Of a stretch of 28,109 nucleotides of DNA, positions 415 to 12,288 are shown piece by piece. The translations under genes were made by a program, and so were the position numbers. The stretch's first letter is position 1; every line of letters begins with the position of its first letter. The notes under the pieces were generated by a model, which ran no database searches, was not told the DNA's origin, and saw only the letters and a program-made list of their open reading frames with translations. The stretch is taken from assembly GCA_903831925.1 (NCBI GenBank), contig CAIKZV010000153.1, positions 1 through 28,109 of the forward strand. Direction: 5' to 3'. Source of the stretch: an uncultured Burkholderiales bacterium. Its GTDB lineage: Bacteria; Pseudomonadota; Gammaproteobacteria; Burkholderiales; Burkholderiaceae_E.

Positions 415-2460
415 GTGATGAGCAGGCGATCTGATGGTCTGATTTTCGGTCTCACGGTTTTTTCGAGCTCCTTCCTGCTCTTTCTGATCCAGCCGATCGT
501 CTCGAAGTACATCCTTCCCTGGTATGGCGGGTCGTCGGCGGTCTGGACGACCTGCATGGTGTTCTTTCAGGTCATTCTGCTGCTGGGCTATGCCTATTCC
601 GACTGGGTGAGCCGCTCCCTGCGCCCTGCCGCGCAAGTCGCGCTGCATGGCGGCCTGATCATCCTCAGTCTCGTGACCCTAAAGATTCTGGCCGATGTCG
701 GCGACAAGCCCGACGGGCTCCAGGATCCGACCCTCTCGATCCTGATGCTGCTGGCATCCACCATCGGCCTGCCCTATTTCCTGCTGTCGACCACCGGGCC
801 CCTGATCCAGAGCTGGGCGTCACGCGCCGGCGCCGGGCCCGAGGTCTATCGCTATTTTTCGCTCTCCAACCTGTCATCGCTTGCGGCGTTGTTGAGCTAT
901 CCCTTTCTGATCGAGCCCAATTCGACGCTGGCCAGGCAAGCCAGCGTGTGGTCGATGGTCTATTTTGTGTTCGCCGCTTTTTGTCTCCTGGCGGGCATCC
1001 GCTTCAGTCTGACCGCCGACCGGCAGGCACCACCGCCGCGCGATGCGTCGATGGTGATGCCCGACGAGGCGGCGAGTGCGCCGCCCACGCTGTCTCAGCA
1101 ATTGCTCTGGATCGCCCTGTCGGGCATGGGTTCCTGGCTGCTGCTGGCGGTGACCAACCATCTGACGCAGAACATCGCGCCGGTCCCGCTGCTGTGGCTG
1201 CTGCCACTGTGCATCTACCTGATGACCTTCACGATGGCCTTCGAGAGCGATCGCTGGTATGCCCGCAAAGCCTATCTGCCGGTGCTGCTGCTGCTGGTCG
1301 TGGCCTGTGCTTTCGGACTGCAGTCATCGAGCTGGCCCGATACGAAAACCGGCATTCCGCTCTATCTCATCGGCCTCTTCGTCGCCTGCATGTTCCTGCA
1401 TGGCGAGCTGGCCTTGAGGCGCCCGGCCACCCGGTATCTCACGCGCTTTTATCTGATGATTTCGCTGGGCGGGGCGCTGGGCGGCATCACGGTTGGTCTG
1501 CTTGCGCCGCGCTTTTTTGTCGGCTATTACGAACTGGGCCTGGGGTTTGTCATTGTTCTGCTGCTCGCCATGGGGCTGACCCGCAAGCAGCCGGTGTCAC
1601 TGATGGCGACCGGCGCGGGTGCGCTGGCCTGCGGAGTTTTCCTCACGCTGCAGATCATTGGCGATACCGCTGATGCCCGTGTGCTCAAGCGCAATTTCTA
1701 CGGGACTCTCGAGACCAACGACGCCGGCATCAAGGGCAGCCCGGACGAGGTCAGGGAGCTCTATCACGGTGCGGTGAACCATGGTGAGCAATATCTGTCG
1801 CCCGAGCGCCGCAGCGAGCCGACCAAGTATTACGGCCGCTCCTCTGGTGTCGGTCTGGCCATCGAGAACGCCACCAGCGGCCCGCGACGACTCGGGCTGA
1901 TCGGTCTTGGCGCCGGAACGCTCGCGGTTTATGGTCGGGACGGTGACTATCTGCGCTTTTACGAGATCAACCCCGATGTCATCGAGGTCGCGCAGACCGA
2001 ATTCACCTTCATTGCCGACAGCCGTGCCAAGGTTGATGTCGTGTTTGGCGATGCGCGCCTTGTGCTTGAAAAGGAGCCGGCCAACGCATTCGACGTGCTG
2101 GCCATCGATGCCTTTTCAGGCGACTCGGTGCCTGTGCACCTGATCACGGTGCAGGCGGTCGAGCTTTATCTGAAACATCTCAAGCCCGATGGTGTGCTGG
2201 CCTTCCATGTGACCAACCGATTCCTGTCCCTGGCCCCGGTGCTGGAGCGAATCTCGGCCAGGCTCGGGCTGCATTGCGTGCTGATCCATGATGAAGCGGC
2301 CGGTGTCAATCTCTATCGGACCGATTGGGTGCTGATGGCCCGTACGCCGCAAGCCCTGTCTCCAAAGGCGATTCAGGATGCAGTCAGTCCGATTGTCGGC
2401 ATCGAAGGGCTGACTGCCTGGACGGACGACTTCAACAATCTGGTGAAGGTCCTCAAGTAG
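415..2460 (+). CDS. Integral-membrane spermidine-synthase-like / SAM-dependent protein (fused MFS/spermidine synthase family)
   Basis: About 410 hydrophobic N-terminal residues with many TM segments, then a Rossmann domain: [46 protein letters not shown]. Start is GTG 415 or ATG 418. Confidence 0.85.
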
Positions 2461-3787
2461 GACGGAAGGGCGTGCCCTTGACCAGGCGGCTGAGTTCGGC
2501 GGCCCGATAAGGTTTACCCAGGAATTCATCGACCCCGGCTTCGAGGCAGGCCGCGCGTTCATCTGCCAGCACATTGGCGGTCACCGCGATCACGCGCGGC
2601 TGATGCGCAAGCGGCATCTTGCGCAGTGCGAGGGTGGCGCTGATGCCGTCCAGACGAGGCATCTGAATATCCATCAGAACGAGGTCGTAAGGTTTGGACG
2701 CGAGCAGGTGCAAGGCAGCCTCACCGTCCTCGACGACATCAGGGATGATGCCCAGCCGCTTGAGCAGCGCGCACATCAGCGCCCGGTTGACCGGGTTGTC
2801 CTCGGCCACCAGGACCCTCAGCCCGGCGACCTGTTCGTCGGCGTGTTCGATCGGTGCACTGACTGGCTCAGGGAGGCTTTGCTGGGTGATCGGGCGCCAT
2901 TCGAGCGCGAAGACTGATCCTTGCCCAGGGGCGCTTTGAACCGTGAGCACGCCCTGCATCAGGTCGGCGATCCGCTTGCAGATTGCGAGCCCGAGGCCGG
3001 TACCGCCGAATCGCACGGTGGTGTCGGTCTCGGCCTGCTCGAAGGGCTGGAAGATCGCCTGCAGGCGATCCGCTTCGATGCCGATCCCGGTATCGGTCAC
3101 GCTCAGACGCAGACTGACCCGCTGATGCTCATGCCGGCTCAGGGCCTGCAGCCGGACGGTGACACGGCCCGTTGCGGTGAACTTGATCGCATTGGCGGTC
3201 AGATTCAACAGGATCTGTCGCAGGCGCATATCGTCGCCGATCAGGATCGCCGGCACGTCGCTATCGCAGTTCACCTCGAAGCCCAGGCCTTTGTCTTTCG
3301 CGATGACGTCGAGCATGCGGGCGACGGTATTCATCGCGACACGAATATCGAAAGGCAGGCTGCTCAGAATCATGCCGCCCGCTTCGATCTTCGACAGATC
3401 AAGGACATCATTGATGATCGACAGCAGCAGTTCGCCGCTCGATTCGATCGCCAGCGCATGCTCGCGCTGCTCGGGTGCGAGCGTGCTGTCGAGCAGCAAC
3501 TGCGTCATGCCGATCACGCCGTTGAGCGGTGTTCGCAATTCATGGCTCATTGCCGCCAGGAAGGCCGACTTGGCGAGGGTGGCAGCCCGAGCCTGATCGA
3601 GCGCGGCTGCCAGCTCCCGCGTGCGCTCCGCGACCTGTTGTTCAAGTGTTCCGGCGAGTTCGGCGAGATGGCGGTTGGCCTGGTAGAGCTCGAGGCTCTT
3701 GGCTTCCAGCAGCGCTTCGGCCTGCTTGCGTGCTGCACGCTCTCGATCGGCGCGCTGCCTCAGTAGATCATCATGGCCCTGACTCAC
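2453..3787 (-). CDS. Soluble hybrid histidine kinase (HisKA + HATPase + REC), probable H-NOX partner kinase
   Basis: H-box [12 protein letters not shown]-box [26 protein letters not shown]; REC domain VLVAEDN...[10 protein letters not shown]...FLGKP. N-terminal coiled coil with no TM. GTG start overlaps the H-NOX stop (GTGA, 3784-3787). Confidence 0.92.
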
Positions 3788-4473: not shown

Positions 4474-6213
4474 TTAGTGCTGCGACGCGAGCTTCAGTGC
4501 GTCTTCGCGGGATGAGTCGTGCAGTGCGTGGCGCAGGTCGATGAATTGCACGAGATCCTGCTCGGCCAGGGGACGCGAAACAAAGAAGCCTTGCACTTCA
4601 TGGCATCCCATCGTTTTCAGCCATTGCATTTCCCGGTAAGACTCGACCCCTTCGGCGACGACCCGCAGACCCATGCGGGCGCCCATGTCGATCATCGACT
4701 TGACCATCGCCTGATTCTTTTCGTTCGAAGCCAGCCCGCTGACAAAGGAGCGGTCGATTTTCATCTCGTCGACCGGCAGATGCTGCAGCTGCTTCAGTGT
4801 CGAGTAGCCGGTTCCGAAGTCATCGATCGAGAGTTTGAGTCCGGCGCTCGACAGTTCTGACAGGCTGGCAATCACATTGTCGGTATCTTCGATCAGGCCG
4901 CTTTCGGTGACCTCCAGGCAAAGCTGGCTGGGCAGGATGCCTTGATCGCGAACCACCTGGGTGACGAAGGCGACAAAGTCGGGGCGTTCGACGTCCTGGG
5001 CTGTGATGTTGACCGAGACACACATCTCGGGCCTTCGTGAGCAAAGTGTTGTCGCAAACCTGGCGCCTTCGGCGACGACCCACTCGGTGATGCCTTGCAT
5101 CAGACCGGTTTCCTCGGCCATCGGAATGAACTGATCCGGTGACACCATGCCTTTTTTGGGGTGATTCCAGCGAATCAGTGCTTCAACACCTGTAAAGAGA
5201 CCGGATTTCAGGTCGAGTTTGGGCTGGTAGACGAGGAAGAGCTGACGCTCGGCAATGGCCCTGACCAGATCCGACTGCAGCGACAGCCGGTCACGCGAAT
5301 CGTTCAATTGGGTTGTGATCTTCGCATCGAGCCTTGGTTCGAAGAAGAATGATGCGCTGCGTTTGCGGTTCGAACGCTCTGCGGCCAACTGCGCATGCAG
5401 CAGCAGATTGGTCTCGGAATTGGCGTCATCCGGATACTGTGCGGCACCCAGTCCGACTTCAATGTCGACGGACTCGCCATCGATCAGCAGAGGTGGTCTG
5501 GTCGCCTCTGCAATCCGTTGCAGGACCGGCTCTGCGATTGCCCTGTCCCCTCGCACAAGCAAGGCGAAGCGCTCATCGCCCAGGCGCACGACCGTGTCTT
5601 CCTTGCGCAACTCGCGCCGCAGGCGACGCGCGATCTGGTTGATGGCATCGTTGCTCTGACCGGGGCCAAGCATTTCGGCGATTTCCTTGAACCGGCGGAT
5701 TTCGACGATCGCCACGCAAAAGCGCTCGGCGGCTTCGGTATGGGCTTTGATGGCGAGGCTGACGCGATGGCTGAGCACCGTGCGATTGCCAAGCCCTGTG
5801 ACCGGGTCCTGCAGGGCGGCCTTGAGGATCTGCTTTTCGCGCTCGATGGCCATCGAGATCAGGCTGCTCGTGTGCACGCCAATGCAATCGATCAGCTCGA
5901 GCACACCGGCATCACTTGAGTGCGAGGTGATATTCGGACGCGCATGCTCCAGCTCGGACAACATGGCCTCGAGTTTGCGCTTGACCCGGCCAAGGCTCGA
6001 TTCGAAGACGCGCAGCAGCGTCAGATAGCAGGCAATGGCACTTACGCCAAGAATGAGCAGCGACGCTGTGCCCCACTGGGTCTGGTGCAGCAGAAAGGCC
6101 GCAAGCGCTGTCTGCACCAGCAGGACGACGCCCAGCCAGACGAACGGCGCCACCGAGCGCCGGTTGCGCACGCGTTTTGCCCGCTCTGACATTTCCGGAG
6201 TTGGTGAACCCAT
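4474..6213 (-). CDS. Membrane-anchored GGDEF(degenerate)-EAL protein, probable c-di-GMP phosphodiesterase
   Basis: Two N-terminal TM helices; QDPVTGLGNR; the GGDEF site reads GDERF; EAL domain intact (VEALIRW, EVTES, DDFGTGYS, KIDRSFV, AEGVE, QGF). Start uncertain (ATG 6213 or 6192; the 6366 ORF start looks too far upstream). Confidence 0.9.
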   Translation of the reverse strand: MGSPTPEMSERAKRVRNRRSVAPFVWLGVVLLVQTALAAFLLHQTQWGTASLLILGVSAIACYLTLLRVFESSLGRVKRKLEAMLSELEHARPNITSHSSDAGVLELIDCIGVHTSSLISMAIEREKQILKAALQDPVTGLGNRTVLSHRVSLAIKAHTEAAERFCVAIVEIRRFKEIAEMLGPGQSNDAINQIARRLRRELRKEDTVVRLGDERFALLVRGDRAIAEPVLQRIAEATRPPLLIDGESVDIEVGLGAAQYPDDANSETNLLLHAQLAAERSNRKRSASFFFEPRLDAKITTQLNDSRDRLSLQSDLVRAIAERQLFLVYQPKLDLKSGLFTGVEALIRWNHPKKGMVSPDQFIPMAEETGLMQGITEWVVAEGARFATTLCSRRPEMCVSVNITAQDVERPDFVAFVTQVVRDQGILPSQLCLEVTESGLIEDTDNVIASLSELSSAGLKLSIDDFGTGYSTLKQLQHLPVDEMKIDRSFVSGLASNEKNQAMVKSMIDMGARMGLRVVAEGVESYREMQWLKTMGCHEVQGFFVSRPLAEQDLVQFIDLRHALHDSSREDALKLASQH

Positions 6214-6359
6214 GACCTGTTCTGATGAGATCTTGATTGCAGCCTTGACTGATGCTCCGATCCTAATGAAGGAGTCGTGACCGGCGGCGCGCGAACCGGG
6301 TGTTCGGCCGCTTTTGCCCTGCAAGCGGTCGGGTTGTCGGCAAATTGGCGCGTGCCAAC

Positions 6360-6390
6360 CTGACACCCGTGTTTGGTCGCGTGCTAGTAT
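6360..6390 (+). promoter_or_regulatory. Candidate sigma70 promoter (extended -10) for the P450 gene
   Basis: CTGACA (6360-6365), 19-nt spacer, TGc-TAGTAT (6382-6390); RBS AGGAG at 6407-6411 before ATG 6420. Confidence 0.3.
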
Positions 6391-9428: not shown

Positions 9429-9484
9429 GACCGAGGCGCGAAACCCGGTGCAATGCACCACTTTCTGTACATCGAGGCAACCCC

Positions 9485-9772
9485 ATGCTCGAATCAAGCA
9501 GTGATCCGTACGACATCCTCGGTGTTCCGTCGAGTGCCAGCACGGCCGATATCAAGCTCGCCTTTCGAAAAAAGGCGTCTTTCTTTCACCCGGATCGCAA
9601 CCCGGATGCCGATGCCGCGGCGCGTTTTCGTGATGCGCAGCAGGCCTACGAACTGCTGATCGACGAGGACCGGCGCCGGGCACACGACCAGAAACGACGC
9701 AAGCATCTCCTCGAGAATCCGCTCGAGACGGCGCGCGCCATGTTCCAAACCTATCTCGAACAGATCCGATGA
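9485..9772 (+). CDS. atcJ: Short stand-alone J-domain co-chaperone, AtcJ-like
   Basis: DPYDILGV...IKLAFRK...HPD(35-37)...F...QQAYELL; 95 aa; C-terminal NPLETARAMF gives P-X7-F, resembling the PX7W motif of AtcJ. First gene of a four-gene overlapping operon. The J-domain is certain; the symbol is inferred. Confidence 0.8.
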   Translation: MLESSSDPYDILGVPSSASTADIKLAFRKKASFFHPDRNPDADAAARFRDAQQAYELLIDEDRRRAHDQKRRKHLLENPLETARAMFQTYLEQIR

Positions 9773-10314
9773 AACTTTCCGACTATTTCTTTGAACTCGA
9801 AGAAAGCTATCGTGCCGATCTCGATGACCTGCGCTTCGATTCCGATGGCCGCGATGTCCTGCAGGCCAGGCTCAAGGACAAGCGCAGTCAGCTGTCGGCG
9901 CTCCTGCCGATGATCGGATTCGACCCGGTGCTGGTGGCACCGGTCTTTCACGGCGCCTTTGAATTTCCGGCGGGCGGCCATCAGACGGTCGCCGACCTGC
10001 TGAGCCAGTTTCCAGGTGAATTTGCACCCTGGCAGGATGTGGCGGCGGCGGTGACCGTGGCCGCCTGGGCGCAGCCGCTGGTCAAGACCGTGCTGGCCAA
10101 TGCTCATGGCGAGGATTTCCTGGCAACCGTCGTAGCGCTCGAATTTGCGCTCTCGCGCCGTCTCGGGCCGCGGGCTGAGCAGGCCGACGATGAGCGCGAT
10201 GATCATGAAGACGGCGATGATCGCGACGACAGCAGCGAGGACAGCGACGAGGGCGATCAGCTGAGCGAGGATTATCTCGAACAGCAGGGCTTTGACCGCA
10301 GGAGCAGCGAATGA
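9769..10314 (+). CDS. Hypothetical protein, second gene of the J-domain operon (AtcA position)
   Basis: ATGA overlaps at both ends; 181 aa; acidic linker followed by EDYLEQQGFDR. No recognisable catalytic motif; Atc identity rests on gene order only. Confidence 0.75.
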   Translation: MKLSDYFFELEESYRADLDDLRFDSDGRDVLQARLKDKRSQLSALLPMIGFDPVLVAPVFHGAFEFPAGGHQTVADLLSQFPGEFAPWQDVAAAVTVAAWAQPLVKTVLANAHGEDFLATVVALEFALSRRLGPRAEQADDERDDHEDGDDRDDSSEDSDEGDQLSEDYLEQQGFDRRSSE

Positions 10315-11033
10315 CGCATGCGATCGTGAGCACGGTGTCGAGCCTGGTCTACGAGGGCAATATCGACAGCGCCGAGCGGGCACTGGCCACGGTGGCCGAT
10401 GCCGAGGGTGATTACGCCCTGGCCAAGGTGATCGACGAGATGCCCTCGCGGGATGTGGTGGCGATCCTGCGCGAGCACGACAGTTCGCGCAGTTCGATCA
10501 TCAGCGAGCTGATCTCGCCCAAGGCGTTTCTGGCCGCAGTGGTGCTGGAGCGTGAATATCGTGAGCGCAACCACGAGTCACTCAAGGGCATGATCAATTC
10601 GGTGGTCTTTGCCGACGAAGACCGCACCGATGAATTCATCGAATCGCTGGGCAGCACCGCCGATGGCGTGAGTGCGCTGGCCGATTATTTTTCCGAGCGC
10701 CATGAAGAGGTCGAGTACTTCTTTCGCAATGGCACCTATTCCCAGCTCGAGGGCGACGAATCGGCGGGCATTCCGACCTCGAATGCCGATCTCGATCTTG
10801 GTGATCCGGGCGACTACCAGCGCGGTGAGATCGTCGCGCTGCGCGAGGTGCAGGACCAGGACTGGCGCGAGCTGTCCTGGCGGCTGCGCTGCGAACACTA
10901 CGAAATTTTTCGCGAAGTCCTCGAGGTGCTGCGCATGCGCCATATGCGTTCGCTCGAGGTGCCGGTCGCGCCACCCAAGTCGGCGCAGGCGCAGGCACTC
11001 GACGACGATGATGATGAGGATGACGTGCTGTGA
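10311..11033 (+). CDS. Hypothetical acidic protein, third gene of the J-domain operon (AtcB position)
   Basis: ATGA overlap upstream and GTGA overlap downstream; 240 aa, helical-looking, ends DDDDDEDDVL. Confidence 0.75.
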   Translation: MTHAIVSTVSSLVYEGNIDSAERALATVADAEGDYALAKVIDEMPSRDVVAILREHDSSRSSIISELISPKAFLAAVVLEREYRERNHESLKGMINSVVFADEDRTDEFIESLGSTADGVSALADYFSERHEEVEYFFRNGTYSQLEGDESAGIPTSNADLDLGDPGDYQRGEIVALREVQDQDWRELSWRLRCEHYEIFREVLEVLRMRHMRSLEVPVAPPKSAQAQALDDDDDEDDVL

Positions 11034-12250
11034 ACTGGGTCGCACATCGGGATTCCCGCTCACTCTTTGAGCGCGCCTGGCTGCATGGCATCGGGTCGGG
11101 CATCATCACCCCTGAAAATCAGGAGGTGATCAGCCGCGAAGGCACGCGCGCGATCCGCAAGATTGCCAGCGTCCTCGGCTCCGAAAACCTGCGCGCCGAT
11201 CTCGAGCGCGCGATGCGCAGCATGCTCGGGCTGGTCAATCTGCACCTCGAAAAAGTCAGCCAGGGCGACATCCGCCTGGCGGCCCGCTCGATTGCCGACA
11301 ACGGGCTGCTCTTTCATACCCGTGGCGCCTCGAATGACATCAAGCGGATCCTGGCGACCCGCGACGGCCTCGAGCTCGAGGACATCGACCCGGAGCAGAA
11401 GCAGCAGTACGAGGAAGCGGTGGTCTCGTCCTGGGCGCAGTATTCGTTTGCCGACTTCATGCAGCAGTATGAGGACGCCGAGCGGGTGCGCCGAAGGCGC
11501 GATGCTGCCGCGGCGATTTCGCAGGCCCTGCAGGGCGACGCGCCCGACACCGACTTCGAGCCCGAACAGATCATCATGACCGCGCTGCTGATCATGGTCT
11601 ACACGCGAAAGATGACCTGGATTGCAAATCAGCAGGGCCTGGAAAAACTGATCGACGCGATCCGCAAGTCACCGCGCAAGCTTGCTGCGCCGCCCGAGGG
11701 CCTGCCCGATCGGTATCGCACCATTATCGAAGCGGTCTGGGCTGAACGCGCACCGGCCCTCAAAGCGGTGATCGTCGATTCGGCAACCCCTTTGCATGTG
11801 CTGGTCGCGGGCGACCCATCGGTCAACCGGCTACACGAATTGCTGGTGATGCCCGAAAACGCGCTGGCCGATGTCGACGATCACGACGATCGCACCACCT
11901 CGCACTGGCGAAAGCTCACCGGCGGCACCAGCGACGAAGCGCGCCTGCTGGTGATCATGCTCCAGGGTGTACTCGAACTGACCGACAAGCCGCCCTTCAG
12001 CCAGCGAACCGCGAAGCGCCTGCTCGATACCGTGCTCATCAAGCGGCCAGACGATCGGCTCATTGCCGACTGGCTCGAGGCCAATGCGCCGCATCAGAAT
12101 CAGTCGGGGCTGTTCGAGCTCTGGAACGATTTCTGGGACGAGCGCGAGTCGACCTTGCATGAGGATGCCGGCAGCGACGACTACCAGTCCTTTGCGACAA
12201 CCTGGCTGCCGATGCAGGCGCCGCGAAAGAAGCCGGCGGCCAAGGCTTAG
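11030..12250 (+). CDS. Hypothetical protein, fourth gene of the J-domain operon (AtcC position)
   Basis: GTG start overlapping the previous stop; 406 aa soluble, helical-looking; basic tail PRKKPAAKA. Confidence 0.75.
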   Translation: MNWVAHRDSRSLFERAWLHGIGSGIITPENQEVISREGTRAIRKIASVLGSENLRADLERAMRSMLGLVNLHLEKVSQGDIRLAARSIADNGLLFHTRGASNDIKRILATRDGLELEDIDPEQKQQYEEAVVSSWAQYSFADFMQQYEDAERVRRRRDAAAAISQALQGDAPDTDFEPEQIIMTALLIMVYTRKMTWIANQQGLEKLIDAIRKSPRKLAAPPEGLPDRYRTIIEAVWAERAPALKAVIVDSATPLHVLVAGDPSVNRLHELLVMPENALADVDDHDDRTTSHWRKLTGGTSDEARLLVIMLQGVLELTDKPPFSQRTAKRLLDTVLIKRPDDRLIADWLEANAPHQNQSGLFELWNDFWDERESTLHEDAGSDDYQSFATTWLPMQAPRKKPAAKA

Positions 12251-12288
12251 GCCGGGCGGGGCGGCGCACTGTTTCACCTCGATTGACC

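Follow-up and report, generated by a model that had tools for sequence, protein, structure and literature searches.

Are the four tightly packed genes at positions 9485 to 12250 of a 28,109-nt stretch of bacterial DNA a new chaperone system, or do they belong to one that is already known? The stretch as a whole is called the window here, and all coordinates refer to it. It comes from the GC-rich metagenome-assembled genome (MAG) of an uncultured freshwater member of the Burkholderiales (3.5 Mb, 765 contigs, 91.5% complete). A reading made from the letters alone, the sequence-only reading, had proposed a distant homologue of the Shewanella oneidensis atcJABC operon in a GC-rich, non-Shewanella host. 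This proposal holds: the four coupled genes are very probably an atcJABC operon that belongs to the published Atc family (for "adaptation to cold") and is native to its host genome. The link to the Shewanella type system is supported at the sequence level by matches to NCBIfam models in gene order, by Pfam labels (AtcB_N) on homologues, by shared hallmarks, and by homology to Oxalobacteraceae operons, including those of a genus tested in a recent preprint.

In S. oneidensis MR-1, the genes for AtcJ, AtcA, AtcB and AtcC bear the locus tags SO_1850, SO_1849, SO_1848 and SO_1846, and growth in the cold depends on the atc genes (Maillot et al. 2019, PMC6715715). The preprint counts 294 genomes with the operon, most of them from Beta- and Gammaproteobacteria; the gene order is constant, and inheritance is reported to be vertical and in agreement with the species tree (Boussouar et al. 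2026, bioRxiv 10.64898/2026.09.07.749886). In the same work, betaproteobacterial systems (Collimonas, Janthinobacterium; strain B9-8) were tested experimentally, and that of Collimonas arenae behaved as an Atc system. The same source gives experimental evidence that AtcB attaches to RNA polymerase (RNAP) by way of two Asp residues, that the AtcJ tail binds AtcC, and that DnaK recruitment relieves AtcB toxicity. The view that the role of the system was untested in such hosts is, on this evidence, outdated. Membership in the family was judged on the fixed J-A-B-C layout of four genes on one strand, homology of the three partner proteins, a class C J-protein with an extension of about 21 residues, its tail motif, an acidic disordered C-terminal region in AtcA, the Asp pair in AtcB, and a DnaK partner in the same genome.

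The four open reading frames (ORFs) are on the plus strand and encode 95, 181, 240 and 406 amino acids, with the start codons ATG, ATG, ATG and GTG. Neighbours are linked by 4-nt overlaps (ATGA at 9769-9772, ATGA at 10311-10314 and GTGA at 11030-11033), and these coordinates are exactly as first described. The genes are:

9485 to 9772, plus strand: atcJ, a class C J-domain protein of 95 amino acids, which consists of the J-domain (residues 7-68) and about 27 further C-terminal amino acids.
9769 to 10314, plus strand: atcA, 181 amino acids; the N-terminal part (residues ~1-130) is globular, a disordered acidic segment comes next, and the C-terminal motif is conserved.
10311 to 11033, plus strand: atcB, 240 amino acids, all-helical, the putative RNAP-binding component.
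11030 to 12250, plus strand: atcC, 406 amino acids, all-helical, the long form, a putative adaptor for the AtcJ tail and AtcB.

Shine-Dalgarno-like sequences (GAGG, AGGAG or GAGGA) can be read 7-9 nt upstream of the atcJ, atcB and atcC starts. Dozens to hundreds of homologues were found for each ORF, and a scan of one genome per species returned 36 related loci. Of these, 33 extend across all four genes, and every one has them in the order J-A-B-C; the remaining three end at a contig edge. Because of these many homologues and the kept order, the ORFs are genuine genes and not chance ORFs in GC-rich DNA. Most of the 36 loci are from lake or stream MAGs of Burkholderiales or Burkholderiaceae, and L004-L007 are near-identical to the window. 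The farthest include Glaciimonas soli GS1 and a Herbaspirillum MAG, both Oxalobacteraceae. The Glaciimonas operon (92, 177, 250 and 412 amino acids) matches the window gene for gene, and its AtcA and AtcC match NCBIfam Atc models. Our local copy of Pfam returned no domain in ORF2, ORF3 or ORF4.

The first gene encodes a J-domain, a tail (residues 69-95) and nothing else, as an Atc class C J-protein does. Residues 7-68 match the Pfam DnaJ domain (PF00226, E 4.4e-19), residues 9-90 match the NCBIfam AtcJ model NF050028 at 38 bits, and the protein is 51% identical to G. soli AtcJ (E 4e-34, BLASTP). Two short features of this protein matter for its proposed function:

9587 to 9595, plus strand: the tripeptide His35-Pro36-Asp37 (HPD), the DnaK-contacting loop of the J-domain, read from the translation.
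9719 to 9745, plus strand: the tail motif P79-X7-F87, at the site of the canonical PX7W AtcC-binding motif, from the locus alignment.

The HPD had been called intact, and it is. A J protein is present in 34 of the related loci, and each of them keeps the HPD. The same genome carries dnaK on contig C669 (TIGR02350, 962 bits against a cut-off of 822), so the DnaK partner of an Atc system is present.

The tail motif aligns with the P-X7-W of Glaciimonas, Herbaspirillum and further loci. In more distant loci this site reads P-X7-W or A-X7-W, with the same xxYL after it. Phe was found at the motif position in 25 loci (24 PX7F and one SX7F). In the AtcB tree, all 25 are inside one 27-row group together with the window (support 88/89), while all Trp loci are outside it. 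As judged from the alignment and tree, this pattern fits a single conservative W-to-F change kept in the freshwater clade. The role of the motif is AtcC binding, and both degenerate motifs (W-to-A/S/T, P-to-A) and motif-less Atc systems are functional, according to the preprint (Boussouar et al. 2026). Since its authors accept degenerate forms, the tail of the window protein counts as an Atc tail. We found no mention of Phe at the Trp position in the parts of the text consulted.

The second protein is homologous to AtcA. Residues 84-171 match positions 84-171 of the 178 in NCBIfam model NF047888, collinearly (E 7e-4, 19.5 bits), and 8 of 17 aligned relatives match the same model, which is the only family they match (best 7e-8). 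BLASTP aligned the protein with Glaciimonas AtcA at 41% identity (E 2e-40). Two C-terminal features were taken from the 17-sequence alignment:

10174 to 10272, plus strand: an Asp/Glu-rich low-complexity stretch of AtcA (residues ~136-168) whose length varies among relatives.
10273 to 10302, plus strand: the C-terminal AtcA motif YLEQQGFDRR.

The preprint describes the C-terminal region of AtcA as disordered and rich in Asp and Glu (Boussouar et al. 2026), and the window protein combines AtcA homology with just such a region. After the acidic stretch, L170, G174, F175, D176 and R177 (L..xGFDR) are invariant across the 17 sequences.

ORF3 is homologous to AtcB. Its residues 21-85 match positions 23-87 of NCBIfam model NF047889 collinearly (E 4.9e-4, 19.6 bits), and 30 of 32 aligned relatives match this model (best 3e-6). 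Precomputed labels place Pfam PF27486 on homologues up to 71% identical; the ESM Atlas (Pfam 38.1) names this family AtcB_N and names PF26699 DUF8235. The AlphaFold 2 (AF2) model has a predicted local distance difference test score (pLDDT) of 85.7. It superposes on an Atlas cluster with a template modelling (TM) score of 0.66; AtcB_N/AtcB_C labels are found on 18% of that cluster's members. BLASTP gave 36% identity to the Collimonas silvisoli protein over nearly the full length (E 7e-53) and 39% to that of G. soli (E about 1e-47). The following features come from the 32-sequence alignment:

10410 to 10412, plus strand: AtcB D34, the first invariant Asp.
10479 to 10481, plus strand: AtcB D57, the second invariant Asp, 23 residues on.
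11001 to 11030, plus strand: the acidic C-terminal tail of AtcB, ending in Val-Leu.

D34 and D57 are invariant in the 32 sequences, and their 23-residue spacing is that of the three tested AtcB proteins. The RNAP-binding pairs given in the preprint are D37/D60 in S. oneidensis, D28/D51 in C. arenae and D33/D56 in Janthinobacterium (Boussouar et al. 2026). D34/D57 is equated with D37/D60 by this spacing and by the NCBIfam register (21-85 against 23-87), not by a direct Shewanella alignment. Every AtcB relative has an acidic C-terminus that closes with [V/A/F]-[L/I], and AF2 gives residues 221-237 a pLDDT below 50. Separately, a loop of some 20 residues (residues ~145-170, window 10743-10820) with lower pLDDT is present in the AtcB proteins of the window's clade and missing from Oxalobacteraceae AtcB; a loop of variable length is mentioned in the preprint. 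A PDB sequence search and Foldseek against the PDB found no solved-structure relative of AtcB. Resemblances to TPR, FliG and MgtE_N-like proteins were weak and not significant, and they were not used.

The assignment of ORF4 was reached through its relatives. Window AtcC aligns with G. soli AtcC over its full length (24% identity, E 3e-23, BLASTP) and with the Collimonas pratensis protein over nearly its full length (25% identity, E 2e-26, BLASTP). Three of 11 aligned relatives match the NCBIfam AtcC model NF047890 (best 6.3e-8), and a 95%-identical homologue carries Pfam PF26699 (DUF8235). The AtcC family profile also aligns with a 290-aa AtcC from another genome of the order (locus L043) with an hhalign probability of 97% (E 8e-11), over window residues 32-234 only, and this short AtcC itself matches NF047890 at 4.3e-6. 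Homology to AtcC was thus found, by these transitive routes only. A 297-aa protein of the AlphaFold Database (AFDB) aligns to residues 1-257, and one part of the window protein has no counterpart in the short forms:

11750 to 12247, plus strand: the C-terminal part of AtcC (residues ~241-406), absent from short (~290-aa) AtcC, from hhalign and the AFDB alignment.

Variation of this kind is known, as AtcC proteins vary in length and have different C-terminal regions and shared N-terminal folds, according to the preprint (Boussouar et al. 2026). The AF2 model of ORF4 is all-helical (pLDDT 94.1, predicted TM score 0.86). No solved-structure relative of AtcC was found by PDB sequence search or by Foldseek against the PDB, and an ESM Atlas feature search with AtcC returned only unnamed clusters, below a score of 0.9. 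A profile built from the AtcC alignment found 253 matches among 1.84 billion representatives. The AtcC cut-off was reached by none of the 10 matches checked (262-373 aa, a range that spans the Shewanella-type length). In some database proteins (P0253, P0256 and P0074), the N-terminal part of AtcC runs on into a HisC-like or SoxH-like C-terminal part, or AtcB into out-of-frame AtcC sequence. These are probably frameshifts or chimeras of gene calling or assembly and not true fusions.

Taken across the operon, the homology to Atc proteins on which the atc label had been made to depend is present, since the NCBIfam profiles match AtcA and AtcB collinearly and AtcC transitively. Among the relatives, the Atc models are the most frequent match for AtcB and AtcC and the sole match for AtcA.

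Several observations weigh against this assignment. The NCBIfam equivalog cut-offs are 150 bits for NF050028, 200 for NF047888, 440 for NF047889 and 370 for NF047890; AtcJ, AtcA and AtcB of the window scored 38, 19.5 and 19.6 bits, and ORF4 had no match to NF047890, which makes its assignment as AtcC transitive. The comparison set included no above-cut-off Shewanella Atc protein for direct alignment. The strict Trp of the AtcJ motif, crucial in S. oneidensis and C. arenae, is replaced by Phe. The promoter and terminator scan found no sigma-70-like promoter, only weak hairpins and no convincing terminator. rpoC, the gene for the target helix of AtcB, was not found in the 91.5%-complete MAG, and some AtcB proteins do not bind foreign (E. 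coli) RNAP, according to the preprint (Boussouar et al. 2026). As the scores are far below the cut-offs, the window proteins are best described as family members and not as Shewanella-type equivalogs. Nor did a sample of 400 genomes from across the class yield any above-cut-off match to the NCBIfam AtcB model.

A mechanism can be drawn from the tested systems, with every interaction and the physiological role carried over by homology. What was observed in this genome comprises the four coupled genes, the homology of their products, conserved residues and motifs, and dnaK. The four genes would be translated as a coupled unit. AtcB, by analogy, may contact a positively charged helix of the RNAP beta-prime subunit through D34 and D57. 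AtcC would bind AtcB and bridge it to the tail helix of AtcJ, the short C-terminal helix with P79-X7-F87 docking on AtcC. The HPD of the AtcJ J-domain would then recruit DnaK and activate its ATPase. DnaK could in this way limit or remodel an inhibitory AtcB-RNAP complex, which would couple chaperone activity to transcription.

Another possible explanation is that the operon is a drifted Atc homologue in which AtcC still links DnaK to a client, with the client not being RNAP or the role not being cold, for example general stress control of transcription. Expression of the S. oneidensis genes is roughly uniform between 7 and 37 degrees C, and the authors of that study allow other roles (Maillot et al. 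2019, PMC6715715); the preprint places Atc in mesophiles too and includes the AtcB proteins that fail to bind E. coli RNAP. The Trp-to-Phe change common to all Phe loci in the window's AtcB-tree group and the ~170 extra C-terminal residues of AtcC relative to the short forms could also reflect such drift. We consider it unlikely, given that the clade keeps the RNAP-binding Asp pair and most of AtcB without change, that Phe for Trp is a conservative aromatic swap at the same position, and that the Collimonas system, which has long-AtcC relatives, behaved like that of Shewanella in the experiments of the preprint. The tested behaviour of AtcB could also be read as that of a toxin-antitoxin-like or phage-defence module, in which AtcB would be a transcription-blocking toxin restrained by AtcJ, AtcC and DnaK. 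Overproduced AtcB is indeed toxic through an RNAP block that co-expression of AtcC and AtcJ relieves, as reported in the preprint (Boussouar et al. 2026), and the operon is patchy in the order (27 of 401 genomes, 20 of 168 genera). PADLOC, though, matched no defence model to any of the four proteins, the GC content is native, the neighbours are ordinary metabolic genes and no mobile-element genes are nearby. With vertical inheritance, as given in the preprint, and with toxicity on overproduction only, a module of this type is very improbable.

The fallback of the sequence-only reading was a new DnaK-recruiting system unrelated to Atc, with only the operon layout in common. It could draw on the lack of Pfam domains in ORF2-4 in the local copy, on NCBIfam scores far under the cut-offs, and on AtcB and AtcC having no solved-structure relatives. 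It is scarcely credible now that three Atc models are each matched by the positionally matching gene and are the most frequent (B, C) or sole (A) match among relatives. Homologues carry the Pfam AtcB_N label, the homology to Oxalobacteraceae atc operons is full-length, and three Atc hallmarks recur in the window: the Asp pair, an acidic tail on AtcA and the motif in the tail of AtcJ. The partners are Atc homologues and the fallback is not supported. The atcJABC assignment is retained. A further joint reading, which goes beyond this assignment and which we regard as speculative, is that the freshwater clade is a distinct Atc sub-type. Where AtcJ meets AtcC, Phe would have taken the place of the "essential" Trp, and the C-terminal part of the long AtcC may have changed to match; two unreported motifs, L..xGFDR(R) in AtcA and acidic-[V/A/F]-L in AtcB, might dock DnaK, AtcC or RNAP. 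If this were true, these C-terminal docking motifs would be the first functional handle on AtcA.

The surroundings of the operon agree with a resident locus. Its GC content (62.3%) matches that of the window (63.7%), which suggests that it is native and not imported, and no mobile-element genes were found near it. The upstream neighbours encode a cytochrome P450, a metallo-beta-lactamase (MBL) hydrolase and a RIO1 kinase; a major facilitator superfamily (MFS) transporter, another MBL protein and a DsbA-like protein are encoded downstream. The RIO1 kinase, MBL hydrolase, P450 and MFS transporter were considered as parts of the system and ruled out, as they are kept only in the near-identical MAGs L004-L007. 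The gap between the RIO1-type kinase gene and atcJ is 56 bp (9429-9484), and that between atcC and the MFS transporter gene is ~33-39 bp (12251-12288). Because of these short gaps and the lack of a convincing terminator or a sigma-70-like promoter, read-through transcription with the neighbours is possible. Farther away, a 681-aa ORF at 415-2460 (plus strand) has no Pfam match at E 1e-5 and is either a real gene or a chance ORF in GC-rich DNA. Next to it, on the minus strand, are genes for a hybrid histidine kinase (2453-3787) and a GGDEF-EAL protein (4474-6366).

AtcB homologues were found in the 27 of 401 sampled genomes given above with the window's own genome counted. The relatives come from lake and stream metagenomes, which is circumstantial support for a role in cold growth. 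Three lake-MAG records with the operon (L004, L034 and L031) are titled Bordetella parapertussis or Chitinophaga pinensis and look like mislabels of uncultured Burkholderiales bins. A second, short-AtcC atc-like operon is present in locus L043 (G518:C1, 3046-5513, minus strand), with J, B and C proteins of 97, 261 and 290 aa. Its AtcB matches that of the window over the N-terminal ~130 residues only (E about 3e-14). The ORF taken there for atcA has no homology to the AtcA profile, and the wrong ORF was probably picked. Since this short-AtcC operon exists beside the long type of the window, two Atc sub-types coexist in the Burkholderiales.

The main value of these results is in annotation. The four genes and hundreds of homologues in Burkholderiales MAGs from lakes, streams and soil carry the label hypothetical protein, since it is to sequences of the Shewanella type that the NCBIfam Atc models are tuned, and with scores below the cut-offs automatic annotation will keep calling the window proteins hypothetical. 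These genes and their homologues can now be named atcJABC. The locus also contributes a natural variant of the tail motif of AtcJ, W-to-F, that is well sampled, and the alignments pin invariant residues of AtcA, AtcB and AtcC that could guide mutagenesis on DnaK-RNAP coupling. Given that the preprint already describes and tests the Atc system in Burkholderiales, the operon is a further copy with a minor PX7F variant and opens no new question.

Compared with S. oneidensis, the window has the same J-A-B-C order and a similarly short AtcJ (95 aa against 94 aa) with the HPD and a P-X7-aromatic tail. AtcA and AtcB are close to the NCBIfam models in size (181 and 240 aa against 178 and 252 positions), the AtcB Asp pair is 23 residues apart, and AtcA, AtcB and AtcC are without known domains. 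The sequences, in contrast, are very divergent (19-38 bits to the Shewanella-centred NCBIfam models), AtcC has 406 aa against 298 aa, and AtcJ has Phe in place of the crucial Trp (W89). The window genes overlap by 4 nt, whereas Shewanella has a 120-bp gap after atcJ, and the host is a GC-rich freshwater MAG of betaproteobacterial type. With the Collimonas and Janthinobacterium systems of the preprint, the window shares a Burkholderiales host, an acidic disordered AtcA tail and the 23-residue spacing of the AtcB Asp pair. It differs from the Oxalobacteraceae systems in belonging to a separate uncultured freshwater clade, with AtcB 36-39% identical, and the tail motif is PX7F in the window, PX7W in Collimonas and PX7A in Janthinobacterium. 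The HscB-IscU-HscA system offers a more remote parallel, as there, too, a minimal class C J-protein brings a single partner encoded in the same operon to an Hsp70 by means of its non-J part. Its partners and its pathway, Fe-S cluster assembly, are unrelated, and HscB has an Hsp70 of its own, HscA, whereas AtcJ works with the housekeeping DnaK.

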